A stretch of 64,000 bases of DNA from contig VBDX01000130.1 in the NCBI GenBank assembly GCA_005881885.1, positions 1,882 through 65,881 on the forward strand. The letters are read 5' to 3'. Below are positions 2,636 through 23,824 of this stretch, one piece after another (within the stretch, counting starts at the first letter, position 1; each line of letters starts with the position of its first letter). Below the pieces are notes generated by a model, which was given only the letters and a program-made list of their open reading frames with translations, made no database searches and was not told the origin of the DNA. Source of the stretch: Chloroflexota bacterium. GTDB lineage: Bacteria > Chloroflexota > Limnocylindria > P2-11E. The translations under genes were made by a program, and so were the position numbers.

Positions 2636-2712
2636 CGTCGGACCATCCGTCGCGCGGGGCGCGAAGTCGACCGCGATGCCCAGGTTTGCGGAGGAGCGAC
2701 TAAGGTAAGGTC

Positions 2713-2964
2713 ATGTGCCGCAGCATCAAGACGCTCCGCCGCCCCGAGGGGTCGGCCTCCGACGAGGAAATCGCGGCCGCCGCGCTCCAGTACGTGAGAA
2801 AGGTCAGCGGTTACCGCGCCCCTTCCCGCCGTAATACGCGTGCCTTCGAAGCCGCCGTCCGGGACGTGGGCCGTGCCTCGCGCCGGCTCCTCGAGGCGAT
2901 CGACCCTAATGCATCTTCGCTAGAGAAATCTCCACCAACAGGCCAATTTACTAAGCGCTCGTAG
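2713..2964 (+). CDS. DUF2277 domain protein
   Basis: N-terminus MCRSIKTLRRPEG..EEIAAAALQYVRKVSGYRAPSRRNTRAFEAAV matches the conserved MCRNI.L....A..EI.AAA.QYVRKVSG signature of actinobacterial DUF2277. Confidence 0.75.
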   Translation: MCRSIKTLRRPEGSASDEEIAAAALQYVRKVSGYRAPSRRNTRAFEAAVRDVGRASRRLLEAIDPNASSLEKSPPTGQFTKRS

Positions 2965-3076
2965 CGACCGCACACTCCGCCGAGGCGCTCTTCGGAAGGA
3001 GAGGCGGTCAAGGCACGCATAGGGTTGAGGGGCATCGCCCGCGTGCCGGACTGCTTCTCCTTTCTTCTTCTCTTCC

Positions 3077-3445
3077 TCAGGCGGCGACCAGATACCGGTT
3101 CAGCACATCGCGGAGTGTCGCCGGGTAGTAGGGCTTCGACAGGAACTCCGTGCAGCCGGCCTCGATGGCCTTCGACTCGTCGCCCGGACTCGCCGACGCC
3201 GAGACCGCGACGATCGGCACGTCCTTGGCCCAGGACTCCTTGCGCAGCCGTTTCACGACTGCCCATCCGTCCAGCTTCGGTAGCTGGAGGTCGAGAAGGA
3301 TGAGCTGCGGCCGTTGCTCTCGTGCGAGCTCTAGCGCAGCGTAGCCGTCGGTCGCCACGGTCGCCTCGTGCCCCGCGTGCCGGACGATGCGCAGCGCGAG
3401 CTCGAGGTTATTGGGTTCGTCCTCGACCACCAGGATTCTTGCCAC
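3077..3445 (-). CDS. single-domain response regulator (CheY-like receiver)
   Basis: 122 aa. Shows the receiver layout: acidic pocket VVEDE, phospho-acceptor LILLDLQLP, and K in SKPY. Confidence 0.85.
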   Translation of the reverse strand: MARILVVEDEPNNLELALRIVRHAGHEATVATDGYAALELAREQRPQLILLDLQLPKLDGWAVVKRLRKESWAKDVPIVAVSASASPGDESKAIEAGCTEFLSKPYYPATLRDVLNRYLVAA

Positions 3446-3450
3446 TTGAG

Positions 3451-4530
3451 CTAGGCGGGAGCCTCGGCCAGCGGCAGGTCGAGTGTGAAGGTCGATCCGA
3501 GCCCGAGCCCGACGCTGCTCGCGGACACGCTGCCGCCGTGCGCCTCGATGATCAGCCGCGTGACGTACAGGCCCAGGCCGACGCCGATCTTGTCCTTGGT
3601 CGCGTCGGTCTCGACGCGTCCGTATTTCTTGAAGATCACTCCGAGCTGCGACTTCGCGAGCCCGACGCCCTGGTCTTTCACCGATACCCGCGCGCGACCG
3701 TCTCTGCGGTTCACGGTGACGTGCACGGTCGATCCCATCGGCGAGAAACGGATTGCGTTGTTCAGCAAGTGCTCGATGGCCGTCCGCAGGCGTTCCGAAT
3801 CGGCGTCGACCCAGATCGGATCCGATTCGGCGACCAGCTGCAAACGATCCTTATCGGTTTCGCGCGCGAGCTCGGCGACGAATTCGCTCAGGTCGATCTT
3901 GCCGCGGTTCAACCGGAAACGGCCGGCCTCGAGCTGCCCGACCTCGAGCACGTCCTCGGCGAATCGGTTGAAGTTGCGGCTCTGCCGGCGAAGCTCGTTG
4001 ATCGCGCTGCGTTCCGTGCTGCTCAGAGCGGGAGCTCTGGTCAGGTCGGGGATGGCGGACTCGATCTCGCCGGCCGAACGGCGGAGCGTGTGCGCGATGA
4101 GCGCCAGAGATTCCTCGCGATGCGCGTCCACGCTGCGGAGCGCCATTCGCTCGCGCCGCACCTGGTCGATGAGCAGTCCGAGCATGAGGAAGATGGCCGC
4201 ACGGGTGAGGCCGTTCCAGAGGTTCGCGCCTATCGGGATGCCCGAGCGCGCGACGACGTCCGCCCAGATCCAGGCGATCGTGGCGAGCAGCGCGATGAAC
4301 ACCGCGGGACCTCGGCCGAGCCACCAGCTCGCGAGACCGATGGGGATGAGGTAGAAGATCGCGAAGCCGTACTCGGGGCCGGTCGAGATGTCGACGAGCC
4401 AGATGGCCGCGATACCTAGCGCCGCGAGAAGCGTGAGCGGGAATACGAGGCGCCTGCCCCGTATATCGAGGTCGGCGAGCCGGCCAGTTGGGACGGTCCG
4501 CGCCCGCAGCGCCGTGTGTCCTTCGCTCAC
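3451..4530 (-). CDS. sensor histidine kinase with N-terminal 4-TM (DUF4118-like) sensing domain
   Basis: 359 aa. H-box HTLRRSAGEI, N-box LLNNAIRFS, G-boxes DQGVGL and GLGLGS. It lies 5 bp upstream of the receiver gene. Confidence 0.85.
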   Translation of the reverse strand: MSEGHTALRARTVPTGRLADLDIRGRRLVFPLTLLAALGIAAIWLVDISTGPEYGFAIFYLIPIGLASWWLGRGPAVFIALLATIAWIWADVVARSGIPIGANLWNGLTRAAIFLMLGLLIDQVRRERMALRSVDAHREESLALIAHTLRRSAGEIESAIPDLTRAPALSSTERSAINELRRQSRNFNRFAEDVLEVGQLEAGRFRLNRGKIDLSEFVAELARETDKDRLQLVAESDPIWVDADSERLRTAIEHLLNNAIRFSPMGSTVHVTVNRRDGRARVSVKDQGVGLAKSQLGVIFKKYGRVETDATKDKIGVGLGLYVTRLIIEAHGGSVSASSVGLGLGSTFTLDLPLAEAPA

Positions 4531-4678
4531 GACGCGCCAGTATGCCGCGAAAGCGCACGCTTTTGGTCCAATTCTGGTGTCGGCTAATGCATTTGGAGTA
4601 GGCGCCGTCTATCCCGATGTGTAACGCGAATCCGCCGTCGGAGGGATAGACCTCCCTATACAAAGGTCAGACACTAAT

Positions 4679-4696
4679 GTCTCGATTGTCTCGATT
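4679..4696 (+). promoter_or_regulatory. tandem 9-bp direct repeat GTCTCGATT x2 upstream of the PstS-like gene
   Basis: Lies in the divergent 170-bp region between the RR/HK operon and the pstS-like gene, about 20 bp before the first ATG. The geometry resembles direct-repeat response-regulator boxes. Confidence 0.35.
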
Positions 4697-4717
4697 CGAC
4701 CCATGAGGAGGGCCCGA

Positions 4718-5554
4718 ATGCGCTCTTTGCGAACATATCTGCTCGTCGTTGGCGTACTGCTCGGCGCGAGCTGCGGAGGCGCTGGCCCGATCGGGGTGGC
4801 GCCGACCGCCGATCCCTTCGCCGGCCAGTACATCGTCAACGGCGGCGGTGGCGCACTCGACAACGTCAAAGCTTTCACGGACGCGTTCGGGAAGATGCAC
4901 CCGAGCATCACCTGGCAAGGCCTCGCCGACATCGGCTCCGATGCCGGGGTGAACCTTGCGGTCAGCGGCGAGACCGATCTCGGCTACATCAGCCGCGACC
5001 TGAAGGATCCCGAGAAGGGCAAGGTCGTGTCTTTGGCGATCGGCGCAAGCGGCACCGCGGTCGCGGTGGCCGCGTCGAATCCGGTCAAGTCTCTGACGAA
5101 GGACCAGGTCGCGAAGATCTTCACCGGGGTGATCACCGACTGGAAGGACATCGGTGGGTCGCCCGGAAAGATCCGTGTCCTCATCCGCGAATCGGGAGCC
5201 GCGACCCGCAGCGCCTTTGAGGCCTATTTCTTCGACGGCAAGAAGCTTCCCTACGCGCCGAACGCGGTGGAAGTGACGACCATCACCGAGACCGTGAAGG
5301 CCATCAACTCCTTCAAGGAGTCGATCGGCATGGTCACGATGAACGCGAGCACGTTCTCGGATACCACGATCGCCTTCACGACGATCGACGGCGTCGCGCC
5401 CTCGCGGGAGAACCTGAACAGCGGCAAATACCAGGTCCGCCGGCCGCTGTACTTCGTCTACAACGCCGACCCGACAAAGGTGAAGCCGGCGATCAAGGCA
5501 TTCATCGACTTCGTCAAGGGGCCCGAGGGCCAGAAGATCCTCGCGGGCCTCTAA
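4718..5554 (+). CDS. PstS-family phosphate-binding periplasmic lipoprotein
   Basis: PBP/PstS-like fold with lipoprotein signal LLGASCGG. The ORF opens at 4703, but the second ATG at 4718 has an ideal AGGAGG 6 nt upstream. Conserved SG..TR and GSGT segments are present. Confidence 0.7.
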   Translation: MRSLRTYLLVVGVLLGASCGGAGPIGVAPTADPFAGQYIVNGGGGALDNVKAFTDAFGKMHPSITWQGLADIGSDAGVNLAVSGETDLGYISRDLKDPEKGKVVSLAIGASGTAVAVAASNPVKSLTKDQVAKIFTGVITDWKDIGGSPGKIRVLIRESGAATRSAFEAYFFDGKKLPYAPNAVEVTTITETVKAINSFKESIGMVTMNASTFSDTTIAFTTIDGVAPSRENLNSGKYQVRRPLYFVYNADPTKVKPAIKAFIDFVKGPEGQKILAGL

Positions 5555-5580
5555 GGACCGGTCGGGCGACCCAGGAGCTG

Positions 5581-7872
5581 ATGCCCAAGCTCTTCACGCC
5601 GAGCCTGCTCAGGGCGCTCGTCAGCCGCAACGTGCTGGTGAGCGTCCTGGCGCTTGTCGTAGTCACCGCGGTCGCGATCTACGAATCAAACGACCTCATC
5701 CTCAGCCAGTTCGCCGACGAGTCCGCGATCCTGGCCGACGTAGCACTGAATGAGATCAACGACCAGGCCGATCTGGCGCAGCGAGCGGCCACCTTGGTGG
5801 CCGGACTCCCGACAACCCGCGAGCTGACCGAGCAGCGGGACGCCGATGAGCTGACGAACTTCCTCCTCCCCGTGAAGTCGAAGATCGGCGTCGACGACAT
5901 GAGCGTCGCCGACAACAACGGCGTCATCATCGCGACCGCCCAGGAAAAGACGAGCGACACGCTCGAGCCGGAGCTCGTCACGCTGGCCAAGGCCCAGGTA
6001 CAGCAGTCCTGGGTGCTCTTCGACGAACCGCAGGGGCTCGTCATCCGAGCGATCTACGTCATCCGCAACGCCGACCAGGAGCCGATCGGCACGATGGAGG
6101 TCGGCAACATCCTCGGATCATCCTTCCTGAAGAACATCAAGACCCGCTCGAACGCGGATCTGGCGCTCATCTGGAGCGGCCGGGTGCGCGCGTCGACCGT
6201 CGACTTCGGGACGAACACCGTGTTCCCGAGCGTCCCGCAGGTCGACGCCGAGCCGAACGATGTCCTGATCCAGAACATCTACGCGAACAACACCAACTAC
6301 TACGGCATCTTCCGAGTCCTTCGCTCTCAGCGGCAGAACCCCGGGCTTCTCGCGGTCCTCGTTCCGACCGCGGGGGTCGAGCAGGCCCAGCGGACTCTCA
6401 TCGCAATTCTCATCGTCCTCGGCATCGCGCTCGTCGGTGTCGTCACGCTTCTCGCCTATCGCACGGCGCGAAGCATCACCCAGCCCCTGGAAAGCCTCGC
6501 CTCGGCCGCGCAGCGGATCGAGGCGGGCGACCTCGCGGCACGCGTGCAGCAGGTGTCGCCGCACGAGATCGGCACGCTCGAGCGCGCGTTCGACACCATG
6601 GCCGCGTCGCTGTACGAACGCGAGCGCGCGCAGCGGGAGTACCTCGACGAAGTTCGCGCTGTCAACGAGGTAGCCGATGCTGTCGTCGGCGTCACCGACG
6701 CGGAGCGGATCTTCGCTCGGTCGCTCGACCGGATGGTGTCGCTCCTGGGCGCCGACGGCGGCGCGATCGTCATCCGCGAGGATCCGCCCGGCGCACCTCC
6801 GGGATCCGGCGGCCGCCTCAACGCCCCCGCGACGGTGGGCATCGACGGCCAGACGGCTGTGATGCTGGCGATGCGCGTCCTCGTGCGCTCCGAGGCGGAC
6901 ACCGACCGCATCAGGCTGTCGAGTGTCTCGGCGGGCGACTTGCGCTTCGTGGCGCACGTTCCGCTGTCCGCGCGTGGCCGCACCATCGGCCTCCTCTCCG
7001 CGTACTTCCGCGAACAGCGGGACCTCACCGATACACAGGCCCGCGCGCTGCGAACGATCGCGCGTCTGATCTCGGTGGCGAATGAGAACGCGGACCTGGT
7101 CGGCGAGCTGCGCGTGAACAACCTGCAGCTTGAGCGGGCCAACCGCCTGAAGAGCGAGTTCCTCGCGAGCGTAAGCCACGAGCTGCGCACGCCCATGAAT
7201 GCGATCATCGGCTACACGAAGCTGATGCTCGACGGTCTCGACGGCGAGCTTACGGCGCAACAGTCCACCGACCTCTTCCGGGTCGCCCAGGCCGCGGACA
7301 ACCTTCTCGGGCTCATCAACGGCCTGCTCGACCTCGCGAAGATCGAAGCGGGCAAGATGGAGTTGAACGTCGAAGAGGTCAGCATGAACGAGGTCACCGA
7401 AGAGGCGCTCGAGCTCGTACGACCGCACGCGGACGAGAAGGGGCTCGAGGTCCGCTCGCTGATCCCGAGCGCGTTGCCGAACGTGTGGGGCGACCGGGCG
7501 CGCGTGCGGCAGGTCCTCGCGAACATGCTCGCCAACGCCGTGAAGTTCACCGAGCGCGGATCGGTCTCCGTATCCGCGAGCTCTGCGGAAGGGTGGGTGA
7601 CGATCTCCGTCACCGACACCGGCGTCGGCATCACGCCCGAGGCACAGGCCTACGTCTTCGACGAGTTCCGCCAGGCCGACAGCTCGACGACGCGGCGCTA
7701 CGGCGGCACGGGCCTCGGGCTCGCCATCTCCAAGCGGCTCATCACCCTGCACGGCGGCCGCATCTGGGTCGATAGCGAAGTGGGGAAGGGGAGCACGTTC
7801 CATTTCACGCTTCCCATTCGCGTGCGGGCCGGAAGCGAAGCCGCCCTGCTCACCCGCACGGCGAGCCGCTGA
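5581..7872 (+). CDS. sensor histidine kinase (periplasmic sensor - HAMP - GAF - HisKA - HATPase_c)
   Basis: 763 aa. Two TM helices flank a ~250-aa extracytoplasmic domain. HAMP is followed by a GAF-like region. H-box SHELRTPMNAI, N-box LANAVKFT, G-boxes DTGVGI and GGTGLGL. Confidence 0.9.
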   Translation: MPKLFTPSLLRALVSRNVLVSVLALVVVTAVAIYESNDLILSQFADESAILADVALNEINDQADLAQRAATLVAGLPTTRELTEQRDADELTNFLLPVKSKIGVDDMSVADNNGVIIATAQEKTSDTLEPELVTLAKAQVQQSWVLFDEPQGLVIRAIYVIRNADQEPIGTMEVGNILGSSFLKNIKTRSNADLALIWSGRVRASTVDFGTNTVFPSVPQVDAEPNDVLIQNIYANNTNYYGIFRVLRSQRQNPGLLAVLVPTAGVEQAQRTLIAILIVLGIALVGVVTLLAYRTARSITQPLESLASAAQRIEAGDLAARVQQVSPHEIGTLERAFDTMAASLYERERAQREYLDEVRAVNEVADAVVGVTDAERIFARSLDRMVSLLGADGGAIVIREDPPGAPPGSGGRLNAPATVGIDGQTAVMLAMRVLVRSEADTDRIRLSSVSAGDLRFVAHVPLSARGRTIGLLSAYFREQRDLTDTQARALRTIARLISVANENADLVGELRVNNLQLERANRLKSEFLASVSHELRTPMNAIIGYTKLMLDGLDGELTAQQSTDLFRVAQAADNLLGLINGLLDLAKIEAGKMELNVEEVSMNEVTEEALELVRPHADEKGLEVRSLIPSALPNVWGDRARVRQVLANMLANAVKFTERGSVSVSASSAEGWVTISVTDTGVGITPEAQAYVFDEFRQADSSTTRRYGGTGLGLAISKRLITLHGGRIWVDSEVGKGSTFHFTLPIRVRAGSEAALLTRTASR

Positions 7873-9419
7873 TGGCACGCGTGCTGGTCGTCGAGGACGA
7901 CGCCAACAACCTCGACGTCGCGTCGCGGATCATCCGCGCATCCGGGCACGAGGCCCTCGTGGCCGCGGACGGCGTCGCGGGACTCGACCTCGCGCGTGTC
8001 GAGCGGCCGGATGCCGTCCTCGTGGACCTCCTCCTCCCGCGCATGGACGGGTGGAGCCTTACGCGGTCGCTGCGCTCTGAGCCGTGGGCCGCGAGCATCC
8101 CGATCATCGCGGTCTCGGCGCTCGCGCTTCCCTCCGACCGAGCGCGCGCCATCGAGGCCGGGTGCGACGACTTCGTCTCCAAGCCCTTCGCGCCGGCGGA
8201 GCTACGGGCCATCCTGCTGCGGTACTTCCCGGGCGGGGCCGCCCAGGTCCCCGCTCCGCGGGACGGCACGCCGACGGTCCGCGGGCCCGTCCCGATCACG
8301 CTCGGCAAGGTGCTCATCGTCGACGACGAGATCGCGAACGTGGAGCTCCTGGCGCGGCGCCTCGAGGCGATCGGCTGCCAGACACAGGTCGCGAGCTCCG
8401 GCGAGCGCGCGATCGCCCTTGCGCGGACCGAGCAGCCTGACCTGATCCTGCTCGACGTGATGATGCCCGGCATGGACGGCTGGCAGACCTGCCGCCGCCT
8501 CAAGTCCCAGCCGGAGACAGCGGACATCCCCGTGATCTTCGTCACCGCGAGGGACCGATACGAAGATCTGAGCAAGGGCTTCGAAGTCGGCGGGATCGAC
8601 TACATCACCAAGCCGTTCGAACCGATCGAGCTCGCAGCGCGCGTGCGGAGCGCGATCTTCACCAAGCGCCTCCAGGACGAGCTGCGTAAGACCGCCGCGG
8701 ATCTGCAGCGAATGGAGCAATCGCGCAAAGAGCTGATCGGCATGCTCGGACACGACATCCGCAACCTCGCGAACAGCGTCGTCGCGTTCATGCAGCTCGT
8801 GCGCATGGGACAGCTCGAGCCCGGCCGCCGCGAATTCGACGAGCTCTTGCGCCTCTCCGAGTCGAACATCAGCGAGCTGCTCCGGATGGTCAACGCGCTG
8901 CTCGACGTGTACAAGATGGAAGAGGGCAAGCTTGAGGCGATGCCTCAGGTCATCGCGCTCTCGGCGCTCGCCGAGCGCAGCATCGCGCAGGTCGTGCCCG
9001 AAGCGCTCGCGAAGGGGATCGAGCTCGAGAGCTCGCTGCCCGGCAACGTCGCTGTGTTCGTCGATGACGGCCTCATCGTCCGCGTGCTCACGAACCTCCT
9101 CGCCAACGCCGTGAAGCACACCCCGACCGGCGGGAAGGTCCGCATCGAAAGCGTGCGCGACAGTGCGCTCGAGGGCTCGATCATCGTTCGCGTTCACGAC
9201 ACCGGCCCAGGGATCGCGGCCGACGACGCGCCGCACATCTTCGACCGTTTCTACCAGGGGGCGGGCCGCAGCCGTGGTGGAACCGGCCTCGGCCTCGCGT
9301 TCTGCAAGCTGGCGGTCGAGCTTCACGGCGGGAGCATCGCCGTCGTGAATCCCGGCGAGACCGGAGCGATCGTCCAGTTCACTCTTCCCGCGGCCGACCG
9401 CGCCCCGGCGGGGGCCTAG
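7872..9419 (+). CDS. hybrid REC-REC-histidine kinase (soluble)
   Basis: 515 aa. Two receiver domains (LVVEDD..LLDLLLP ; LIVDDE..LLDVMMP) then H-box GHDIRNL and an HATPase_c (NLLANAVKHT, DTGPGI, GGTGLGL). Its ATG overlaps the upstream kinase stop (TGATG). Confidence 0.9.
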   Translation: MARVLVVEDDANNLDVASRIIRASGHEALVAADGVAGLDLARVERPDAVLVDLLLPRMDGWSLTRSLRSEPWAASIPIIAVSALALPSDRARAIEAGCDDFVSKPFAPAELRAILLRYFPGGAAQVPAPRDGTPTVRGPVPITLGKVLIVDDEIANVELLARRLEAIGCQTQVASSGERAIALARTEQPDLILLDVMMPGMDGWQTCRRLKSQPETADIPVIFVTARDRYEDLSKGFEVGGIDYITKPFEPIELAARVRSAIFTKRLQDELRKTAADLQRMEQSRKELIGMLGHDIRNLANSVVAFMQLVRMGQLEPGRREFDELLRLSESNISELLRMVNALLDVYKMEEGKLEAMPQVIALSALAERSIAQVVPEALAKGIELESSLPGNVAVFVDDGLIVRVLTNLLANAVKHTPTGGKVRIESVRDSALEGSIIVRVHDTGPGIAADDAPHIFDRFYQGAGRSRGGTGLGLAFCKLAVELHGGSIAVVNPGETGAIVQFTLPAADRAPAGA

Positions 9420-9424
9420 CGACC

Positions 9425-10906
9425 GTGCTCGGGCGGGTCCTCCGGCATGCCATTCCGCTGCGCCGCGGGGAATGGGGCCTCGCCATATTCCTCTACGTCC
9501 TGCTGACGCTCATGGTCGCTGCGGACTGGGTCGGGAAGCTCGGCGCCGACTCGCTCTTCGTGAAGCGCTGGGGCGTGAACTACGTGCCGGTCATGTATAT
9601 CGTCACGCCGGTCGCGATGCTCGCGGTCTCGGCGATGATCTTCTTCTTCGTCGATCGCGTTCGGCGGCGAACGCTTCTCCTCTGGTACGTGGCCGGCGTG
9701 ACGCTGCTCTCGGTGGCGATACAGGCCGGCGTGACCTTCCAGTCGCAGATCGAGAGCGGCTGGATCGTCCAGCCGATCTCCTACGTCTTCGCGCACGGCG
9801 TGAAGGAGACGATCTACATCCTCTTCTGGGTGTATGCCGGCAACCTGTACGGCGCCGAGCAATCGAAACGTCTCTTTCCGTTCTTCGCGGGCTCGGTGCT
9901 CGTCGGCAAGATACTCGGCGGCGCGATCGGCGCGGGCATCGCACCGGTCATCCACGCGGAGAACTTCATCGGCGCGCAGGCCGTCGGGTTTCTCGTGTGC
10001 TTCCTCGCGCTCGTCGTATACCGCGGCCTGCCCGAGGGTCAGGGCAGCCGGATCGAGGAAGAGCGCCCGAAGGGTCTCGCCGCGAGCGTCAAGGACTCGG
10101 TCGAAGGGTATCGCGCGGTCGCGTCCGACCGGATGCTCAGAACATTTGGTGTCGGAGTCTTCTTCTGGTATTTCCTCATGCAGTTTGGGAACTTCCTCTA
10201 CCTCGTAGGTCTCGATCAGAGCACGGCCGGAACGGGAACCGGCAACGAGGATCTGTTCAGCCAGCTCTACGCGTCGATCTACACCAGCTCGTCGCTCGTC
10301 GCGCTCTTCATCCAGAGCGCCTTCACGAGCGCGCTGCTACGGCGCCTCGGGATCGCACGGGTGCTGTTCGTGCTGCCGCTCTGGTTCCTCGGCTCATACG
10401 CCGCCGCGACGATCAACTTCAACATCATCACCGCTGTCGCGATCCAGCTGAGCGAGCGGATCGTGATCCCGGCGATCCACCGCCCCGCCACGGAGCTCGT
10501 GTACAGCCAGGTCGTCGCAGCGATCCGGCCGCGTGCGCGCGCGTTCCTTTCGGGCGGCGTGAATGCGTTCGGGAACTTCGCCGCGGCGGTCGCGCTGCTC
10601 ATCGGGCTCCAGATCCACGACAACCAGATCCTGCTGGGCGTGGCGACCGCCCTCTCGGGCGTCTACGTGTACAACGCCTGGCATACGATGCGCCTCTTCG
10701 GGCGGCGGATCCTCGAGAACATCACCTCGATCGAGCCGGACGTCCGATTCAGCGCCGCCGAGATCCTTGCCACAGAGCACGGCGCCGTCCCGGAAGATCT
10801 CCTGCGATCGCTCGACGGGACCATCCCCGCCGACGTGGAGCACGGCGTGCGCGTCGCGCTGACGCGTCGCGGCCTTCTCGCGGTCGCGGCCGACGTGACC
10901 GAGTAA
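9425..10906 (+). CDS. 12-TM transporter, ATP:ADP antiporter (TLC)/MFS-like
   Basis: 493 aa with about 12 TM helices. The N-terminal pattern LFV..W.VNYVPVMYIV.P.AML..S...FF.VDRVRRRTLLLWYV resembles the TLC/Npt nucleotide-transporter family. The family assignment is tentative. Confidence 0.55.
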   Translation: MLGRVLRHAIPLRRGEWGLAIFLYVLLTLMVAADWVGKLGADSLFVKRWGVNYVPVMYIVTPVAMLAVSAMIFFFVDRVRRRTLLLWYVAGVTLLSVAIQAGVTFQSQIESGWIVQPISYVFAHGVKETIYILFWVYAGNLYGAEQSKRLFPFFAGSVLVGKILGGAIGAGIAPVIHAENFIGAQAVGFLVCFLALVVYRGLPEGQGSRIEEERPKGLAASVKDSVEGYRAVASDRMLRTFGVGVFFWYFLMQFGNFLYLVGLDQSTAGTGTGNEDLFSQLYASIYTSSSLVALFIQSAFTSALLRRLGIARVLFVLPLWFLGSYAAATINFNIITAVAIQLSERIVIPAIHRPATELVYSQVVAAIRPRARAFLSGGVNAFGNFAAAVALLIGLQIHDNQILLGVATALSGVYVYNAWHTMRLFGRRILENITSIEPDVRFSAAEILATEHGAVPEDLLRSLDGTIPADVEHGVRVALTRRGLLAVAADVTE

Positions 10907-10907
10907 C

Positions 10908-11693
10908 GTGCCCAGAAAAGTGACGACGTCCATCGCCACGGCCCACGAGGCCGATGCCGAGCGCCGGCACGAGCACCGCTTTCAAGTGAGCGAGAGCATC
11001 GCTCGCCTCGTGATGCGCACGACGGCCAACAACCTCCCGCTCTCCCGCGACGATCGGCCCTACCAGTGGTCCACGACGACGTACTGCGACACGCTCAACT
11101 GGTCGATCTTCCGCGCGGCCCAGAAGGGATCGGCGATGCAGCTCCGCATCCGCGAGTACCACCGCACGCGGCCCCAGGGTGTGATGAATCCGGGAGCCGC
11201 GTGGATCGAGTTCAAGGACGACGAGGAGGACACCTCGCTCAAGGAGCGGTTCGGCGTCTCGATGGACGTCGCTCGTTCGTTCCTGCGCGGTGAGATCGCG
11301 CTGCCGGATCCCGATCACGGGCTTGCCGAACGCGCAGGGCGTCTCCTGAAGGATGGGGCGCGCCCGGTCGTGGTCACGCAGTACAACCGTCTCGCATACA
11401 ACTCCCTCGATACCGCGATCCGCATCACCGCCGATCACAACCTCATGTACTTCGCGTTGCCCTGGGAGGCGCGGGACGACAACGATCAGCCGTCTCCGCT
11501 CGGGACGCTCCTCGCGATGGAGCCCGATGTGATCGTCGAGATGAAGTGGTACGGCGAGCTTCCCCACTGGGCAATCGACCTGCACGCGTATCTGAAGGAG
11601 AACACTCACGAGGAGCGGCCCTCGAAGTTCATCGTCGCGATGCGCTGGTTGCTCGGGGAGACCGACGGAGCGAAGAAGAAGAAAAAGAAGTGA
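10908..11693 (+). CDS. VTC-domain (polyphosphate polymerase / CYTH-like) protein with C-terminal poly-Lys tail
   Basis: Matches bacterial VTC motifs: E.KF.V (EHRFQVSES), Y.I.S.YFDT (YQWSTTTYCDTLNW), K.RIR.Y (MQLRIREYH), F.E.K (AWIEFKDDEED..KERFGV). It ends in KKKKKK, encoded by AAGAAGAAGAAAAAGAAG. Confidence 0.7.
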   Translation: MPRKVTTSIATAHEADAERRHEHRFQVSESIARLVMRTTANNLPLSRDDRPYQWSTTTYCDTLNWSIFRAAQKGSAMQLRIREYHRTRPQGVMNPGAAWIEFKDDEEDTSLKERFGVSMDVARSFLRGEIALPDPDHGLAERAGRLLKDGARPVVVTQYNRLAYNSLDTAIRITADHNLMYFALPWEARDDNDQPSPLGTLLAMEPDVIVEMKWYGELPHWAIDLHAYLKENTHEERPSKFIVAMRWLLGETDGAKKKKKK

Positions 11694-13000
11694 AGGCTGT
11701 GGAGGAGACCATCCGCTCGGACGCGCCGGCCACGCGCGTGGTCGTCGTCGAGGACGACCAGGCCTCCGCCGACGTCCTCCAGCGGCGCCTGCAGGCGAAC
11801 GGGATGGTGGTCTCCGTGGCGCACGATGGGCGGCGTGGCATCGAGCTCGTCGAGGAGCTGCTTCCGGACCTCGTGCTCCTCGACGTGATGCTCCCCGACA
11901 CCGACGGCTACGACGTCTGCCTGCGCATCAAGAGCAACAGCACGACCGCGCCGATCCCGGTGATCTTCCTCTCGGCGCGCGGCGAGGTCGTGGACAAGGT
12001 CCGCGGCCTCTCGTGCGGCGCCGCCGACTACATCACCAAGCCCTTCCAAGCCGCGGAGCTCCTCGCCCGGATCGACGCGGTGCTGGGACAGGCGCGGAAT
12101 CCGCGCGTCCCGCGCCTGGCTCGGTCAGCGGAGCGCGCAGCCGGCGAGCGGCGCGTGGCGCGGGTCGCGATCGTGGACGGAGCGCTGCGCGCGCACGTCG
12201 AGCAGCTTCTCGCCACACGGTTCGACCTCGCGGAGGACAGCGATATGCCGGACGTCGTGGTGCTCGAGGGTAATGCGTCCGTCCCGGCCGACGCGCCGGA
12301 AGACGTCGCCGTCGTGCGCGTGACCGCCGGACGCGGATCGGACGACCGCGCAGAGCTCGTCCCGGTCGACGCCCAGCTGCCGCGGATCGTCGACCTTACC
12401 GTTCGCGAGCGCGGGCTCGACCACGACCTGCAAGCCGCGGCGGAAGCGTTGATCGTGCTCGCCGCCGCCATTGCGTCCCACGACCGCCCGACCACCGGTC
12501 ACACCGAACGCGTCGCCGCCCGAGCGGTGCAGATCGGCCGCGCGCTGGGCCTCGACGAATCGACGCGAATGACCATCCGGCTCGGTGCGCTGCTTCGCGA
12601 CGTCGGCCATGCGCGACTCCCAGGCTCGCTCCTCGCGAAGTCGGGCGAGCTCGGTCCTGACGAGCGCGCGATGCTCGAGCGCCACCCGGTGCTCGGCGAA
12701 GAGATCCTGGCCGGGTTCAAACGGCTCTCCGGTCTCCTGCCGATCGTTCGCCACCATCACGAGCGGCTCGACGGGACCGGCTACCCAGATGGGCTGCGTG
12801 CGGAGCAGATCCCCTTGGAGGTGCGCATCGTGACGGTGGCGGACCGCTTCGAGGCGCTCCTTGCGGACCGGCCCGATCGGCCGGCGGTCTCGGAATCGGA
12901 AGCGGTGCGGATCCTTCAGGGCGCGGTCGCGCGCGGCGAGCTGGACGCGGCGGTCGTCGCCGCGCTCGCGACGCAAGTGCGTGCGTACGGAGGGAATTGA
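11690..13000 (+). CDS. response regulator fused to HD-GYP phosphodiesterase
   Basis: REC domain (VVVVEDDQ, LVLLDVMLPD, TKPF) followed by HD-GYP (HTERVA..., HHERLDGTGYPDGL). Chosen start is the GTG at 11690 overlapping the VTC stop (GTGA). The ORF as given opens at 11546 but that would overlap VTC by 150 bp. Confidence 0.8.
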   Translation: MKAVEETIRSDAPATRVVVVEDDQASADVLQRRLQANGMVVSVAHDGRRGIELVEELLPDLVLLDVMLPDTDGYDVCLRIKSNSTTAPIPVIFLSARGEVVDKVRGLSCGAADYITKPFQAAELLARIDAVLGQARNPRVPRLARSAERAAGERRVARVAIVDGALRAHVEQLLATRFDLAEDSDMPDVVVLEGNASVPADAPEDVAVVRVTAGRGSDDRAELVPVDAQLPRIVDLTVRERGLDHDLQAAAEALIVLAAAIASHDRPTTGHTERVAARAVQIGRALGLDESTRMTIRLGALLRDVGHARLPGSLLAKSGELGPDERAMLERHPVLGEEILAGFKRLSGLLPIVRHHHERLDGTGYPDGLRAEQIPLEVRIVTVADRFEALLADRPDRPAVSESEAVRILQGAVARGELDAAVVAALATQVRAYGGN

Positions 13001-13001
13001 C

Positions 13002-13709
13002 GTGGCCGATAAAGACATACGCGTCGTGATCGTCGACGATGAACGACTATTCGCCGAGTTGATGCGAGTCGCCCTCAGGGCGGCGGATGGCATCGAGGTC
13101 CAGGCGGTGGTCCACGATGTGAAGGCCGCGATCGCCGCGCTTCACGAGTACAAGCCGGATGTCGTCATCGCCGACTATCACCTGCCGGACGGGACCGGCG
13201 CGGATCTCGCGCGCGCGGTGCGTGGGTCCTTGCCGGACACCTCCGTCCTCGTGCTCACGGCCGATCCGTCCGCGGCGACGCTGAACGACGTCGCGCGTTC
13301 GGGCGCGGTCGGCCACATGACGAAAGGTCGGGGCCTCACCGAGGTCGTGGACAGCGTTCGCTCGGCGGCGTCCGGCGAGATCCTCTTCGCCCCGAGCGAG
13401 CTGCAGCGCCTCCTGCTGGAGAGCGCGGCGGCGCGGAAAGTGATCGAGCCGCTCACCGCCCGCGAGCTCGAGGTGCTTCGGCTCCTGGCCGGCGGGACGA
13501 GCACATCGGCGGCCGCGGAGTCGCTCGGGATCTCCACCGCGACGCTCCGCGCGCATGTGCAGGCCGTGCTCCGCAAGCTCGGCGCGCACTCGCGTCTCGA
13601 GGCCGTGGCCGAAGCGGCCCGGCTCGGGCTCGTCACCCTGGAGTCCTGGACGCGCGACCGCCCGACTCCCCCGCGCGGGGGAAACGGTCCGGCCCCCGAA
13701 CGGTCATAA
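13002..13709 (+). CDS. NarL/FixJ-family response regulator (REC + LuxR HTH)
   Basis: GTG 2 nt after the upstream stop. REC domain (IRVVIVDDE, VVIADYHLPD) plus LuxR-type HTH (LTARELEVLRLLAGG.S...AAESLGIS..T...H). Confidence 0.8.
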   Translation: MADKDIRVVIVDDERLFAELMRVALRAADGIEVQAVVHDVKAAIAALHEYKPDVVIADYHLPDGTGADLARAVRGSLPDTSVLVLTADPSAATLNDVARSGAVGHMTKGRGLTEVVDSVRSAASGEILFAPSELQRLLLESAAARKVIEPLTARELEVLRLLAGGTSTSAAAESLGISTATLRAHVQAVLRKLGAHSRLEAVAEAARLGLVTLESWTRDRPTPPRGGNGPAPERS

Positions 13710-13768
13710 GTCCATCCTTTCGGGGGTGGGGCCGGTAGGACCCACCGCTAGCATCGGAGGCGAAAGAA

Positions 13769-14140
13769 ATGGCAAAACTGCTCGTAGCCGACGACCTGGT
13801 GCCCATCCGTCAGATGGTCCGGATCACCCTGTCCACCCAGGGCTGGACGATCGTCGAGGCGAAGAACGGCAATGAGGCGCTCGACCTGGTCCGGTCCGAG
13901 AAGCCAGACCTCGTCCTCCTGGACGTGGATATGGGCCCCGGCCCTAACGGCTTCGACGTCTGCCGCCAGATCAAGGCTGACGAGGCCACGAAGGACATCC
14001 CCGTGGTCATGCTCACGGCGCACGAAAGCGACAGTGACCGCGCGATCGGGTTTGCGGCCGGAGCGACGCAGTACCTGACCAAACCGTTCGGGCCGCTGGA
14101 GCTCATCGACACGATCCGCGGGATCCTCGCGCACAGCTAG
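13769..14140 (+). CDS. single-domain response regulator
   Basis: 123 aa receiver (LLVADD, LVLLDVDMG, TKPF). Confidence 0.85.
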   Translation: MAKLLVADDLVPIRQMVRITLSTQGWTIVEAKNGNEALDLVRSEKPDLVLLDVDMGPGPNGFDVCRQIKADEATKDIPVVMLTAHESDSDRAIGFAAGATQYLTKPFGPLELIDTIRGILAHS

Positions 14141-14146
14141 ATCGCC

Positions 14147-15133
14147 ATGGGCGCCGACGACACCAAGGAAATGATCGAGACGATGGACGCGTCGCCGCGC
14201 CTACCCGACATCACGGGCGAGGAGCAAGGCTCCGACGTCTTCCGTCAGCTCCTGCACCAGGCCGTCCGCGTCGCCGACCTGGCGAACGCCCAGGCCATGC
14301 GCATGGCGCTCGACTTCGCGAAGGTCTACGAGCGCGAGCAGGGCGTTCGCCATGAGTTCCAGTCGCAGCTCAAGCAGATGACGCTCATGGAGAAGCAGGC
14401 GACGCGCTACGCGGAGGACCTCGCCTCGATGCTCCGCAGCGAGCGCGAGCGCCGGCAGGAGCTCGAGCGCGCGCTCGAGCAGGAGCGCGTCGCGAACGAG
14501 GAGCTCCGCCGGACGGGCCTCCAGGGCATCAGTCACCTGCTCCTCGCGGCGACGATCAAGGACCGCACCACCGGCGAGCATCTGCAGCGGGTACGCGGAT
14601 ACGTCGAGGCGATCGCCCAGCGGCTCGGTCTGCCCGCCGATCTCGTCGAGGAGTTCGGGTACTCGAGTGTCATGCACGACGTCGGCAAGATCCACACGCC
14701 GGACCACATCCTTCAGAGCGAGCATCACCTCACGGATGAGCAGTTCGGCGTCATCAAGCAGCACTGCATCGATGGCGAGAAGATGCTCGGCGAGGCGAGG
14801 TTCTTCGAGACGGCGCGGGCGATCGCCCGCGAGCATCACGAGCGCTGGGACGGGCGGGGCTATCCCGACGGCAAGAAGGGCGAGGAGATCTCGCTCGCGG
14901 CGCGAATCGTCTCGGTCGCCGACGTCTTCGACGCGCTCACCTCGAAACGTCCATACAAAGACGCGTGGTCGGCCGACGCCGGCCTCAAGGCGATCGAGAA
15001 GGACGCCGGCGAGCGCTTTGACCCCGAGGTCGTGAGCGCCTTCGTCGCGCTGTCCCGCGAGGGCGTGGTCGAGACGATCAGGTTCGAGGTCGCGGCGAAC
15101 GCCCCCGCGCAGAACGGAAGCTCAGCCAAGTGA
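14147..15133 (+). CDS. HD-GYP domain c-di-GMP phosphodiesterase
   Basis: HD motif MHDVGKIHTPD and HHERWDGRGYPDG (the GYP signature). It starts 6 bp after the receiver gene. Confidence 0.85.
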   Translation: MGADDTKEMIETMDASPRLPDITGEEQGSDVFRQLLHQAVRVADLANAQAMRMALDFAKVYEREQGVRHEFQSQLKQMTLMEKQATRYAEDLASMLRSERERRQELERALEQERVANEELRRTGLQGISHLLLAATIKDRTTGEHLQRVRGYVEAIAQRLGLPADLVEEFGYSSVMHDVGKIHTPDHILQSEHHLTDEQFGVIKQHCIDGEKMLGEARFFETARAIAREHHERWDGRGYPDGKKGEEISLAARIVSVADVFDALTSKRPYKDAWSADAGLKAIEKDAGERFDPEVVSAFVALSREGVVETIRFEVAANAPAQNGSSAK

Positions 15134-15545
15134 TCGCGCCGCCTGCGGCGGCGCTCACGAGGATCGATAGCAGAACGAAGACGGCCAGCGACCAGGTCGT
15201 GAACTCATCCGGAATCCCGAAGCGCGAGACCGTCTCGCTCAAATAATCGCGAACGAAAAGCGCCCGCACCGTCCCGCCCAGGAATCCGGCGACGAGGCCG
15301 ACGACGGCGCCCGTGCGCAGGGCCAGTCCTTCGTCCAGAGCCAGGCGCGCGACGAACCAGCCGAGCGCCGCATAGACCGCCACCGAGAGGATGAAGCCGA
15401 GCAGGGTGAGCGCCGCGCCGCCAAGCGCGAGCGCGGGACGACCGCGTCCGGGGAGGTCCGCGAGCTGCTCCGCGCTCGCCGCCGACTCGGCCGCACCGAT
15501 CGCGACGAGCGCGCCGACGGCGAGCGTCATGGCCAGGTACCTCAT
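15078..15545 (-). CDS. small membrane protein
   Basis: This is the C-terminal 155 aa of the spurious 810-aa ORF. It begins MRYLAMTLAVGALVAIG with a signal-like N-terminus and 3-4 TM helices. The reverse-strand frame here reads as low-complexity Ala/Ser/Pro. Confidence 0.5.
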   Translation of the reverse strand: MRYLAMTLAVGALVAIGAAESAASAEQLADLPGRGRPALALGGAALTLLGFILSVAVYAALGWFVARLALDEGLALRTGAVVGLVAGFLGGTVRALFVRDYLSETVSRFGIPDEFTTWSLAVFVLLSILVSAAAGGAITWLSFRSARGRSPRPRT

Positions 15546-16269
15546 GCGGGCACCTTCGGGTCCGCCGCTTGCTCCGTCAACTCGCGTGAGTGCCGGCAAG
15601 GGGGACAGGCCCCCCTCGAACCTCCCGGAAGCCGGGCCCGAGCCCGGCCATGAATATCCCGAGCTTCCGGAGACCAGGAGTATCGGGGCGTGGCGGGATG
15701 CCGCGGCCCACTGCAAAGCCTGCGACCTCTGGACGAAAGCGACCCAGACCGTCTTCGGGGAGGGGAAGCGGACCGCCAAGGTCATCTTCGTCGGCGAGCA
15801 GCCCGGCGACAAGGAAGACATCGCGGGCCGACCGTTCGTCGGTCCCGCAGGCCGTGTCCTTGACGAGGCGCTGGAGGCGGCCGGCATCGACCGCGACACG
15901 GTGTATGTGACGAACGCGGTGAAGCACTTCAAATGGCGGACCGGCGGAAAGCGGCGGCTCCATGAGAAGCCCAACCGCAGCGAGATCGCGGCGTGCCGCT
16001 TGTGGCTCGACGCCGAGATCGCCATCCTCAAGCCGCAGGTGATCGTCTGTCTCGGCGCCACGGCGGCGCAGGCGCTCCTCTCGCCGACCTTCAAGGTGAC
16101 GAAAGAGCGCGGGAAGCTCATCCCGTCCCCGCTCGCGCCGCACGTGCTCGCGACCGTGCATCCGTCGTCGATCCTCCGAGCACCGGATGACGCGAGCCGC
16201 GAGCGCGAGATGCGCCTGTTCGTCGAGGATCTGCGCGCCGTCGCGAAAGTCATCCGCGGTCTCTGCTGA
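15544..16269 (+). CDS. udgX: family-4 uracil-DNA glycosylase, UdgX-like
   Basis: CKACDLW Fe-S cysteines, GEQPG motif A, HPSS motif B. It also has the UdgX-specific insertion loop GGKRRLHEKPN (KRRIH in M. smegmatis UdgX). An alternative GTG start lies at 15586. Confidence 0.75.
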   Translation: MRAPSGPPLAPSTRVSAGKGDRPPSNLPEAGPEPGHEYPELPETRSIGAWRDAAAHCKACDLWTKATQTVFGEGKRTAKVIFVGEQPGDKEDIAGRPFVGPAGRVLDEALEAAGIDRDTVYVTNAVKHFKWRTGGKRRLHEKPNRSEIAACRLWLDAEIAILKPQVIVCLGATAAQALLSPTFKVTKERGKLIPSPLAPHVLATVHPSSILRAPDDASREREMRLFVEDLRAVAKVIRGLC

Positions 16270-17410: not shown

Positions 17411-17573
17411 CCCTGCCGACGCTACGCGAACGGGCTGACCGGCGGCCGGTAACCCGTCCTGAACGTTTCCGCGGCCCTGCTAGATTCCGGCCACCGAACC
17501 GCTCGAGCACGGCGGCACTAGTGGGTATGGATGCCGCAGTCAGCGGCCAGATTGGCGGGAGGGGACCCTCGAA

Positions 17574-23699: not shown

Positions 23700-23824
23700 C
23701 GTCTTGCCCGTGGACGTTCTTGGCGTGCAGCTGCGCCATCTGAACGATCTCGTCCTCGTTTGTGCTGCGGACCTCGAATCCGCATGGGCACCGCAGGCTC
23801 TTGAGCTGCTTCACGGACCGATTG

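Follow-up and report, generated by a model that had tools for sequence, protein, structure and literature searches.

A conserved gene array of Limnocylindria that brings together a PstS-like lipoprotein, two histidine kinases, HD-GYP proteins and a Vtc4-like enzyme

Nine co-oriented genes occupy positions 4718-15133 on the + strand of the window (the whole stretch of 64 kb that was analysed). Throughout Limnocylindria, a class of uncultured soil bacteria, eight core genes and a facultative transporter gene stand in one constant order with little space between them. We propose, with about even confidence and on the basis of sequence comparison, that they form one conserved signalling operon by which an external, probably phosphate-like, cue would act on transcription, on the breakdown of c-di-GMP and on an enzyme of the Vtc4 type (Table 1). 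The parts of the array are of known kinds and their combination is new; literature searches yielded no description of the array as a module, in agreement with the initial annotation, which had not recognised it as one. If the proposed mechanism is true, the operon ties phosphate status to polyphosphate handling and to the c-di-GMP level.

Table 1. Features of the array and its surroundings (positions within the window)
Feature	Position	Strand	Support
Divergent response regulator (RR) and membrane histidine kinase (HK) pair	RR 3077-3445, HK 3451-4530	-	Pfam REC, HATPase_c
Conserved non-coding block	4635-4675	+	CCGTCGGAGGGATAGACC; TAGACC (4647-4652), 17 nt, GACACT (4670-4675)
PBP, PstS-family predicted lipoprotein	4718-5554	+	Pfam PBP_like_2, 3e-26
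HK1, membrane sensor histidine kinase	5581-7872	+	Pfam dCache_3, HAMP, GAF, HisKA, HATPase_c
HK2, soluble second kinase, REC-REC-HisKA-HATPase_c	7872-9419	+	Pfam Response_reg x2, 7e-55; HATPase_c, 2e-26
Transporter, polytopic MFS-superfamily membrane protein	9425-10906	+	MFS_1 at 0.0056
VTC protein, soluble Vtc4-like triphosphate-tunnel metalloenzyme (predicted)	10908-11693	+	PF09359, 1.4e-18
REC + variant HD-GYP ('RD-GYP') response regulator	11690-13000	+	Pfam REC, 7e-28; HD_5, 1e-37
REC-LuxR, NarL/LuxR-type response regulator (REC + GerE HTH)	13002-13709	+	Pfam REC, 2e-18; GerE, 2e-15
Intergenic gap before stand-alone REC	13710-13768	+	59 bp, sole sizeable gap of the array
Stand-alone receiver (REC), CheY-like	13769-14140	+	Pfam Response_reg, 5.5e-26
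Canonical HD-GYP phosphodiesterase	14147-15133	+	Pfam HD_5, 1.4e-38

Organization and conservation of the array

Rechecking the open reading frames and junctions of the window confirmed the array as initially described, entirely on the + strand with gaps of 0-60 bp and overlapping start and stop codons. The junctions between the nine genes range from -4 to +59 bp and are, in order, +26, -1 (TGATG, where the start of HK2 overlaps the stop of HK1), +5, +1, -4 (GTGA), +1, +59 and +6 bp. Clear internal promoters or terminators, which would mark the genes as unrelated transcription units, were not apparent: a scan of internal sites found no sigma-70-like promoter inside the array, and only two terminator-like sites occur on its + strand, both weak and both within the transporter gene. 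Pfam backed nearly every domain call made earlier.

The conserved block ahead of the first gene is a candidate promoter/operator of the array. In an alignment of the upstream regions of 19 loci, GGGAT(A/G)GAC and GA(G/C)ACT were retained in clades whose binding proteins are just 60-66% identical. The gap before the stand-alone receiver gene contains a hairpin-capable GGGTGGG..CCCACC (13724-13746) and the motif CTA(G/C/A)CAT (13748-13754), conserved in an alignment of 21 loci and possibly an internal -10 element for the REC and HD-GYP genes. This TAnCAT-like motif counts against a single operon, as the last two genes may also have their own promoter.

Strict collinearity was observed in 66 of 69 related, independent loci, and the complete core is held by 35 loci. 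Since this order is maintained down to about 50% protein identity while the flanking genes vary between clades, the array is more than a chance arrangement. Median ortholog identity is 85% for the stand-alone REC, the best-conserved protein of the array, and 56-73% for the other genes (REC-LuxR, 73%). Nearly all related loci belong to Limnocylindria (Chloroflexota) MAGs, and all array members are known from MAGs and metagenomes. With the loci coming from one class, the synteny could in part be mere inheritance, which counts against joint function.

The binding protein and the two kinases

The start of PBP was placed at ATG 4718, which is preceded by AGGAGG (4706-4711); the alternative ATG further upstream, at 4703, is the less probable start. 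The protein carries a signal peptide and an LLGASC lipobox, its closest PDB relatives are the PstS proteins 4Q8R/4GD5 (1.6e-29), and every significant PDB relative is a phosphate-binding protein. The earlier assignment as a PstS-like lipoprotein is upheld. Against the PstS-family model TIGR02136, PBP scored 135.5 bits, under the cut-off of 206.6. Alignment with PstS revealed that all PBPs of the module carry substitutions in GSTS, YDG and SGT, with GGGG or GANG in place of GSTS and A[AS]T or SST in place of SGT, whereas SRDL, the Arg and the Thr of SGT are retained. Because of the low score and the replaced side chains, phosphate binding by PBP is not assured. The link to phosphate that had been suggested is plausible, yet weakened by the loss of several canonical phosphate-binding side chains. 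None of pstCAB, phoU, ppk and ppx was found within the 64-kb window.

PBP is proposed to be the extracytoplasmic ligand receptor for HK1. In LuxP-LuxQ and TorT-TorS, a solute-binding protein is encoded beside a kinase whose extracytoplasmic part is a large domain of the PAS/Cache type. The array resembles these systems in that the binding-protein gene adjoins a kinase with a large extracytoplasmic domain, but its binding protein belongs to the PstS family and the interaction between PBP and HK1 is predicted.

HK1 comprises two transmembrane segments (residues 18-36 and 273-291 by hydropathy) enclosing a dCache_3-like extracytoplasmic domain of about 236 residues, followed by HAMP, GAF, HisKA, with the H-box SVSHELRTP, and HATPase_c. 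In HK2, the H-box GMLGHDIR is identical in 61/61 orthologs, and the two acceptor-Asp motifs are present in 57 of the 61. Phospho-acceptor motifs are conserved in all kinases and receivers of the array. The initial descriptions of a sensor kinase with GAF and a soluble REC-REC-HK hybrid agree with Pfam; the multi-step phosphorelay does not hold in the strict sense. As Pfam domain calls revealed no Hpt domain in the array proteins, HK1 and HK2 would form a kinase-to-kinase cascade.

Receivers and HD-GYP proteins

Both HD-GYP proteins match the HD_5 model, but only the last gene encodes a canonical one; of the two phosphodiesterases initially annotated, the other is a conserved [R/K]D variant. 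In this RD-GYP protein the HD dyad reads LLRDVGH, with loss of the His, while HHERLDGTGYP and the remaining metal ligands are retained. [R/K]D occurs in all 64 readable orthologs, and the Lys of HDxGK is replaced by N or H. The canonical protein has HDVGK in 57/57 and HHERWDGxGYP in 56/57 orthologs; it lacks a receiver of its own and begins with a region of about 130 residues without a Pfam match that appears coiled-coil-like by eye. GGDEF-EAL genes are located in the same window, and c-di-GMP is therefore presumably made in this organism. Pfam also supported the REC-LuxR and stand-alone REC assignments. REC-LuxR, whose GTG start (13002) is preceded by GGAGG, is the proposed transcriptional output of the array.

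The H-NOX/HnoK-HnoB/HnoC/HnoD network of Shewanella and Vibrio is similar in that one kinase system feeds several receivers, namely a phosphodiesterase, a transcription factor and a degenerate REC-HD-GYP protein regulating the phosphodiesterase; HnoD is such a degenerate protein and inhibits its partner phosphodiesterase (bioRxiv 10.1101/2021.11.05.467447). The array differs in its input, PBP and a dCache/GAF kinase instead of H-NOX, in its phosphodiesterase, a receiver-less HD-GYP instead of REC-EAL, and in the addition of a second kinase layer, the Vtc4-like enzyme and the NTT-like carrier. The best array matches to the NosR-family NCBIfam model reached 129-136 bits, far below the cut-off of 400. 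With RpfC/RpfG the array shares a REC-HD-GYP architecture under kinase control; there, however, the likeness ends at the [R/K]D that replaces HD in every readable ortholog and at the canonical HD-GYP, a separate protein whose gene adjoins the stand-alone REC.

The Vtc4-like protein and the transporter

The VTC protein scored 67.7 bits against PF09359 (cut-off 23), has neither an SPX nor a transmembrane domain, and ends in a Lys-rich tail in this lineage. In structural comparison it matches Vtc2 and Vtc4 best, rather than hydrolases. The Vtc4 residues that coordinate triphosphate and Mn have been listed (bioRxiv 10.1101/2023.01.27.525886) and are retained in 31-32 of 32 orthologs, including K458, the single residue lost in inactive Vtc2/3. 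K200 of Vtc4 is Arg in the array protein, which counts against a Vtc4-type reading. The HMM, fold and active-site residues nonetheless confirm the annotated VTC domain; both the fold and the active site of the protein are of the Vtc4 type. In yeast and protists, Vtc4 is the catalytic subunit of the VTC polyphosphate polymerase; the array protein differs by the absence of SPX, transmembrane domain and Vtc1/2/3 partners and by the K200 substitution, and its activity is predicted. Because its gene lies inside a two-component/c-di-GMP operon, control would be by phosphorylation signalling, not by inositol pyrophosphate sensing. Typical bacterial VTC-domain genes, as in Clostridium perfringens NELoc-2, likewise encode stand-alone PF09359 proteins of about 230-260 residues. 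Those of NELoc-2 are partnered by genes for CotH and a small membrane protein (PMC2879425), whereas the array gene adjoins kinases, receivers and HD-GYP proteins and its product has the beta-1 motif RxExRF. No functional study of this enzyme type in bacteria was found in the literature.

The initial description of the transporter as ATP:ADP-antiporter-like was overstated. The Pfam TLC model (PF03219), whose failure to match had been named in the initial annotation as a refutation of this assignment, gave no match even at E<=10, and Pfam detected no HEAT-repeat domain. Close homologs are named 'ATP/ADP translocase' by JGI. The nearest non-orthologs are 24-30% identical (E 1e-28 to 1e-15), and among 58 scanned, HEAT_2 was present in 48, MFS_1 in 34, TLC in 24 and cNMP_binding in 6. 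Homology to NTT-HEAT proteins, which themselves match PF03219, spans about 430 residues; the TLC relationship is thus only transitive, and the transporter is best described as a short, divergent, unfused and remote relative of the bacterial NTT(TLC)-HEAT clade. A derivative clade of unfused proteins, with Chloroflexi among its members, has been reported (PMC5381601). The NTT-HEAT clade is uncharacterised as to substrate. The gene is present in 41 loci and was lost cleanly and at least twice; since 16/57 loci lack it, it is an accessory, dispensable gene of the array.

Proposed function and alternative explanations

In the proposed mechanism, PBP would bind a ligand outside the cytoplasm, with phosphate or a related oxyanion as the likeliest candidate, and would dock on HK1 at its dCache-like domain, as LuxP does on LuxQ or TorT on TorS, with the cytoplasmic GAF domain adding an intracellular input. 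HK1 would pass phosphoryl groups to the receivers of HK2, and the two kinases between them would phosphorylate REC-LuxR, the stand-alone REC and the RD-GYP protein. The outputs would be transcription via REC-LuxR and c-di-GMP hydrolysis via the receiver-less HD-GYP. This enzyme would be under the control, in trans, of the neighbouring REC, the two amounting to a split RpfG, or of RD-GYP, in the way that HnoD controls HnoB, or of both. The Vtc4-like enzyme would use an NTP, either to synthesise polyphosphate or to act on it in another way, and the NTT-like carrier, where present, may supply or remove a phosphorylated solute. In Pseudomonas fluorescens, RapA is PhoB-dependent and the phosphate level governs c-di-GMP degradation. 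The concept is similar, but the coupling there works at the level of transcription, with PhoR/PhoB and an EAL enzyme encoded at a separate genomic site, whereas the parts of the array are hard-wired in one operon and belong to different protein families.

The operon might function as described with a Vtc4-like protein that is not a polyphosphate polymerase, being instead a triphosphate-tunnel hydrolase (tripolyphosphatase, polyphosphatase or NTP triphosphatase) or a maker or destroyer of a small phosphorylated signal. This is unlikely, though of appreciable weight; the structural matches to Vtc2/Vtc4 and the complete triphosphate-binding set with K458 argue against it. It is rather improbable that the cue is not phosphate and that PBP was re-tooled, leaving a module without a specific role in phosphate economy whose VTC protein and transporter answer an unrelated stimulus. 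The sub-cut-off TIGR02136 score, the replaced GSTS, YDG and SGT and the lack of Pst transporter or PhoU genes nearby fit such a cue, whereas the exclusively phosphate-binding PDB relatives, the retained Arg, Thr and SRDL and the likewise phosphate-related Vtc4-like enzyme in the same operon favour phosphate.

That shared descent alone accounts for the genes lying together, as several unrelated transcription units without joint function, appears very improbable: against the single class of origin, the -10-like motif in the 59-bp gap and the clean loss of the transporter stand the order held at about 50% identity amid changing flanks, the overlapping codons, the scan for internal promoters and terminators and the natural partnership of kinases and receivers. 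It is scarcely credible that the locus is an ordinary, already known Pho regulon built on PstS, PhoR and PhoB, and its domain composition contradicts this. The likeness of PBP to PstS would fit, and models of PhoR and PhoB do match the generic kinase cores below threshold, but all of these matches fall far under the cut-offs, HK1 differs from PhoR in its large extracytoplasmic domain and GAF, the DNA-binding regulator is LuxR-type rather than winged-helix, and pstCAB and phoU are missing from the window.

Neighbouring genes

The divergent RR/HK pair noted initially beside the array is present, but only the clade to which the window belongs was found to carry it at this place, and it is a lineage-specific neighbour outside the conserved module. 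Its RR shares 58% identity with REC1 of HK2 (E 2e-53), and the pair possibly provides an extra input to the array.

Organization and conservation of the array

The array is conserved and tightly packed, and it is intact in its kinases, its receivers, the canonical HD-GYP protein and the Vtc4-like active site. We consider it very probable that the nine genes form one co-functional signalling operon. They encode a PstS-like predicted lipoprotein (PBP), a membrane sensor kinase with a GAF domain (HK1), a soluble REC-REC-HK protein (HK2), a transporter, a VTC domain protein, REC-HD-GYP, REC-LuxR, stand-alone REC and HD-GYP proteins, and are joined, in this order, by junctions of +26, -1, +5, +1, -4, +1, +59 and +6 bp. 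The domains assigned in the initial annotation were all recovered by Pfam, except for TLC. For the first gene, the ATG at 4718 was favoured over a start at 4703, because AGGAGG is located at 4706-4711 and L011, a related locus from another genome, lacks the upstream ATG.

Features of the array and of other regions of the window, with median protein identities across related loci
Feature	Position	Strand	Median identity to window protein	Remarks
Divergent RR	3077-3445	-		upstream of array
Divergent HK	3451-4530	-		upstream of array
Inverted repeat	4607-4615 with 4643-4651			GTCTATCCC / GGGATAGAC, perfect, 9 bp, arms 27 nt apart
Conserved upstream block	4635-4652; 4670-4675			CCGTCGGAGGGATAGACC, 17 nt; GACACT; candidate promoter or operator
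Tandem repeat	4678-4695			TGTCTCGAT x2
PBP	4718-5554	+	63%	ORF list, junction inspection
HK1	5581-7872	+	66%
HK2	7872-9419	+	67%	first receiver 7872-8250
Transporter (membrane protein)	9425-10906	+	63%
VTC protein	10908-11693	+	56%
REC-HD-GYP	11690-13000	+	63%	RD-GYP variant
REC-LuxR	13002-13709	+	73%
Stand-alone REC	13769-14140	+	85%
HD-GYP	14147-15133	+	72%	canonical
BTAD/Trans_reg_C regulator	23762-24985
Cyclase-AAA_16-TPR protein	25281-28415			large; adenylate/guanylate cyclase
PAS-GGDEF-EAL, first gene	39794-41506			tandem, ~25 kb downstream of array
PAS-GGDEF-EAL, second gene	41564-43258			tandem

Homologs of the VTC protein are labelled as MAGs of Candidatus Limnocylindria or of Chloroflexota. 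When one genome from each GTDB species was scanned for the pattern, 67 loci emerged, essentially all from Limnocylindria and a few under other taxon labels; the closest, with 97% identity, is L008 from a grassland-soil Chloroflexi MAG. Eleven window proteins were then compared with 74 loci by tblastn, which left 69 loci after removal of duplicates. The gene order put forward in the initial annotation recurs in this set, in which 66 of the 69 loci are strictly collinear (PBP-HK1-HK2-(transporter)-VTC-REC-HD-GYP-LuxR-REC-HD-GYP), and the complete eight-gene core is present in 35. In one clade the array is preceded by CofD, OTCase and esterase genes and followed by ccm genes, and in the window's clade it is flanked by OCD and DUF2277. 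The flanking genes vary by clade, and therefore the conserved unit is the array and not the wider region. Its most conserved protein is the stand-alone REC, with a median identity of 85% against medians of 56-73% for the other genes, and with 98-100% identity within the window's clade, which suggests that this receiver may have several interaction partners.

The contigs of L012, L016, L062, L064 and L069 are labelled as Udaeobacter, Bathyarchaeia, Dormiibacterota, Acidiferrales and Saccharimonadales MAGs, yet carry a Limnocylindria-type array. Their protein identities (48-88%) span the same range as those of Limnocylindria-labelled loci, and the odd labels probably reflect binning errors and not transfer.

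The VTC protein resembles Vtc4 in its active site

The VTC assignment of the initial annotation was upheld by PF09359, which the protein matches at 67.7 bits (cut-off 23, E 1.4e-18) over profile positions 2-233 of 235. An AlphaFold model based on 32 orthologs (mean pLDDT 88) displays a closed beta-barrel tunnel nearest to Vtc proteins, and a search of the PDB with the ortholog profile found Vtc4 (E 1.2e-6). According to a cryo-EM study of the VTC complex, triphosphate is bound in Vtc4 by K200, R264, R266, K281, R361, K458, S457 and Y359, whereas E426 binds Mn; mutation of the eight triphosphate-coordinating residues lowers cellular polyphosphate, and K458 alone is exchanged, for I or L, in Vtc2 and Vtc3, which are inactive (bioRxiv 10.1101/2023.01.27.525886). 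The equivalents of R264, R266, K281, R361, E426 and S457 are invariant in all 32 orthologs, as are those of E279, K294, R296, R373, D377 and K428 (Vtc4 numbering), and Y359 and K458 have equivalents in 31. Eight of the nine residues of the catalytic set are thus kept in 31-32 of 32 orthologs, the exception being K200.

A profile built from the first 65 residues gave no alignment with Vtc4 in the PDB, and hmmsearch and MAFFT with a Vtc4 sequence, of which the middle and the C-terminal part (~421-469) agree with the profile-PDB alignments, did not reliably align the VTC N-terminus. As the sequence methods miss this region, the K200 position was deduced from strand beta-1 of the model. This first strand (residues 20-27, RHEHRFQV) was matched to RRTTKYWV, which we take to be the N-terminal strand of Vtc4 that contains K200, and the invariant R24 most plausibly occupies the K200 position.

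The soluble protein of 261 residues contains no SPX domain, no Pfam domain other than VTC, no hydrophobic segment and no membrane domain. Since the Vtc4 residues are kept and SPX and membrane parts are missing, it has the appearance of a soluble enzyme of the Vtc4 type that is competent for catalysis, compatible with polymerase and hydrolase activity alike. Its C-terminus is a lysine run, GAKKKKKK (11673-11690), in the window's clade only; distant orthologs lack it. In bacteria, polyphosphate synthesis is ascribed to PPK1 and PPK2. The literature searched contained no work on the function of bacterial VTC-domain proteins of the stand-alone type, and the only bacterial VTC context found there, a VTC/small membrane protein/CotH cluster of Clostridium perfringens, is quite unlike the array (PMC2879425).

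The transporter is a remote relative of NTT-HEAT proteins

The assignment of the membrane protein to the TLC family found no support in PF03219, which gave no match even at E<=10. MFS_1 reached a sub-threshold 16.1 bits, a sequence search of the PDB gave no match, and JGI labels its close homologs 'MFS permease' or 'ATP/ADP translocase'. In 1.84 billion representatives searched exhaustively with phmmer, 2109 relatives were identified, and the nearest non-orthologs among them are long proteins with an N-terminal transporter domain (24-30% identity over ~430 residues, E 1e-28 to 1e-15). In 58 scanned relatives, HEAT_2 was found in 48, MFS_1 in 34, TLC in 24 and a cyclic-nucleotide-binding domain in six. 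The NTT-HEAT clade has been described as monophyletic, widespread and functionally uncharacterised, and as having given rise to an unfused subclade with Chloroflexi among its members (Major et al., PMC5381601). Because the phmmer relatives are NTT-HEAT proteins, the transporter is placed by sequence as a remote, unfused member of this clade, and the term 'TLC-like' appears defensible for its ancestry but not for its function. Hydropathy analysis resolved 8-10 clear hydrophobic segments, compared with the twelve helices of TLC/NTT ATP:ADP antiporters (TC 2.A.12), and an AF2 model from 20 close homologs was too low in confidence for use (pLDDT 39).

Between HK2 and VTC, 41 loci have the transporter gene and 16 cleanly lack it. 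In a neighbour-joining tree of HK2 and REC-HD-GYP, loci without the gene occupy at least two positions and the deepest branches have it; therefore, the transporter is ancestral and dispensable. P0285, a relative from the same phmmer search, additionally contains an adenylate/guanylate cyclase domain. Its cyclase-AAA_16-TPR combination, fused after transporter, HEAT and cNMP-binding domains, is also that of a large protein in the window, which is encoded after a BTAD/Trans_reg_C regulator.

One canonical and one variant HD-GYP protein

Two HD-GYP phosphodiesterases had been proposed for the array. This holds for the last gene, in which the canonical set of HLQRV, VMHDVGK, KQHCIDG, HHERWDGRGYP and VSVADVFDAL was found; among 57 orthologs of its product, all have the HD motif and 56 have the GYP motif. 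The REC-HD-GYP protein, however, lacks the HD dyad. It reads LLRDVGH at this site and keeps HHE, GYP and the remaining metal ligands. In all 64 readable orthologs the dyad His is replaced by Arg or Lys and the Lys of HDxGK by Asn or His, so that, judged by sequence, this RD-GYP protein is a clade-wide variant and not a case of random decay. According to a census of HD-GYP proteins, the dyad His is among the metal ligands of these domains, some RpfG-family members are inactive and work via protein contacts, and HnoD, which does not hydrolyse c-di-GMP, inhibits the phosphodiesterase HnoB (bioRxiv 10.1101/2021.11.05.467447). The canonical HD-GYP protein has no receiver, and its gene starts 6 bp past that of the stand-alone REC. 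The PAS-GGDEF-EAL genes in the window indicate that c-di-GMP metabolism exists in the organism.

Predicted sensory components of the array

PBP has an N-terminal signal peptide and an LLGASC lipobox. It scored 135.5 bits against TIGR02136, under the cut-off of 206.6, and exceeded the cut-off of Pfam PBP_like_2. Among solved structures, it is closest to phosphate-binding proteins (4Q8R and 4GD5, ~2e-29; 1TWY, 1e-24). Alignment of the PBPs from the related loci with 4GD5 and 1TWY revealed changes of GSTS to GGGG or GANG, of YDG to SG or TG and of SGT to A[AS]T or SST, with SRDL, the conserved Arg and the final Thr retained. Its ligand is probably, although not certainly, a phosphate-like anion. 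An ordinary Pho regulon, of which a PstS-like protein might be part, was considered and rejected; pstCAB and phoU are not linked to the array in the window or in related loci. In HK1, which is encoded directly after PBP, two hydrophobic segments (residues 18-36 and 273-291) bracket an external domain of ~236 residues that matches dCache_3 (2e-11, Pfam). By analogy to LuxP-LuxQ and TorT-TorS, PBP is best read as a putative co-sensor for this kinase with its large external domain.

The kinases and receivers had been interpreted as a multi-step phosphorelay. Since no Hpt family occurred among the Pfam matches for any array gene, a canonical phosphorelay was rejected and a two-tier kinase cascade is favoured. 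The divergent RR/HK pair was likewise rejected as a core part of the array, as it lies at this place (3077-4530) only in the clade to which the window belongs. Its single-domain RR shares 58% identity (E 2e-53) with the first receiver of HK2, as if the two were recent paralogs; cross-talk between the divergent kinase and the array is therefore possible, and the pair may represent a lineage-specific extra input.

A putative link between phosphate, polyphosphate and c-di-GMP

In the proposed mechanism, the lipoprotein would signal an external phosphate-like ligand to HK1, with the GAF domain supplying cytoplasmic input, and HK1 would form a two-tier cascade with the receiver-controlled HK2. The cascade would phosphorylate REC-LuxR, affecting transcription, as well as the stand-alone REC and RD-GYP, either or both of which might control the receiver-less HD-GYP in trans. 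NTP-derived phosphate or polyphosphate would be the target of a metabolic arm made up of the Vtc4-like enzyme, together with the NTT-like carrier in those loci that have it.

This specific phosphate-polyphosphate-c-di-GMP connection is tentative and, taken by itself, rather doubtful; for the combined statement of an operon and such a link, we regard the case as evenly balanced. A further joint reading, which we consider unlikely, holds that the Vtc4-like protein is a true bacterial polyphosphate polymerase, independent of PPK and switched by two-component signalling, or that its product is a signal for the GAF domain or the HD-GYP proteins, and that RD-GYP and the stand-alone REC regulate HD-GYP in trans. 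If so, a second-messenger circuit of bacteria would include a polyphosphate enzyme of eukaryotic type as one of its integral nodes.

The array as a described module was not found in the literature on the bacterial VTC domain, on Limnocylindria and polyphosphate, or on PF09359. Its parts are each of a familiar type, and c-di-GMP networks with several receivers (Hno, Rpf) are already known. The novelty lies in the placement of a Vtc4-type enzyme, often accompanied by an NTT-like carrier, within such a circuit, and we were likewise unaware of the clade-wide RD-GYP variant. All functions are predictions, and the organisms are uncultured. The array provides a testable setting in which a Vtc4-type active site occurs amid kinases and receivers, beside an NTT-like carrier and c-di-GMP phosphodiesterases, and it is conserved across Limnocylindria, an abundant class among soil Chloroflexota. 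The RD-GYP variant, the apparently split REC and HD-GYP pair and the PstS-like protein, apparently recruited as a co-sensor, offer further leads. Should the link from phosphate through polyphosphate to c-di-GMP be real, it would show how these soil bacteria couple their phosphorus economy to lifestyle decisions.

Regulatory DNA and neighbouring genes

The window is GC-rich (0.60-0.72). A consensus scan of 2800-17800 identified no sigma-70-type promoter and, on the + strand, two weak terminator-like sites, both within the transporter gene; an Rfam scan of 2500-16000 returned two sub-threshold chance matches and no riboswitch. A block 5' of the PBP gene is kept even in clades with a PBP identity of 60-66% and is a candidate promoter or operator. 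It is overlapped by the right arm of the inverted repeat, which is common to the closest relatives; the tandem repeat directly before the first gene occurs in the closest relatives only. The 59-bp gap before the stand-alone REC gene contains a conserved CTA(G/C/A)CAT 7-15 nt from the start codon, and the last two genes may have an extra internal promoter there. At the position of this gap, L002-L004, loci of one clade, have an additional called ORF of 53 residues (e.g., L002 12769-12930).

Long ORFs at 15078-17510 (-), 13047-13589 (-) and 9472-10923 (+) overlap real genes and, also in view of the synteny with the related locus L001, were rejected as high-GC artefacts; the first and the last of them were scanned and had no Pfam match. 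According to the same synteny, the array is followed by a small - strand gene, a UDG-family gene and an MFS gene. A second PstS-like gene occurs just 3' of the array in three related loci, L033 (13357-14145), L044 (13334-14137) and L040 (6975-8173), and in L040 it is accompanied by a receiver related to the divergent RR.
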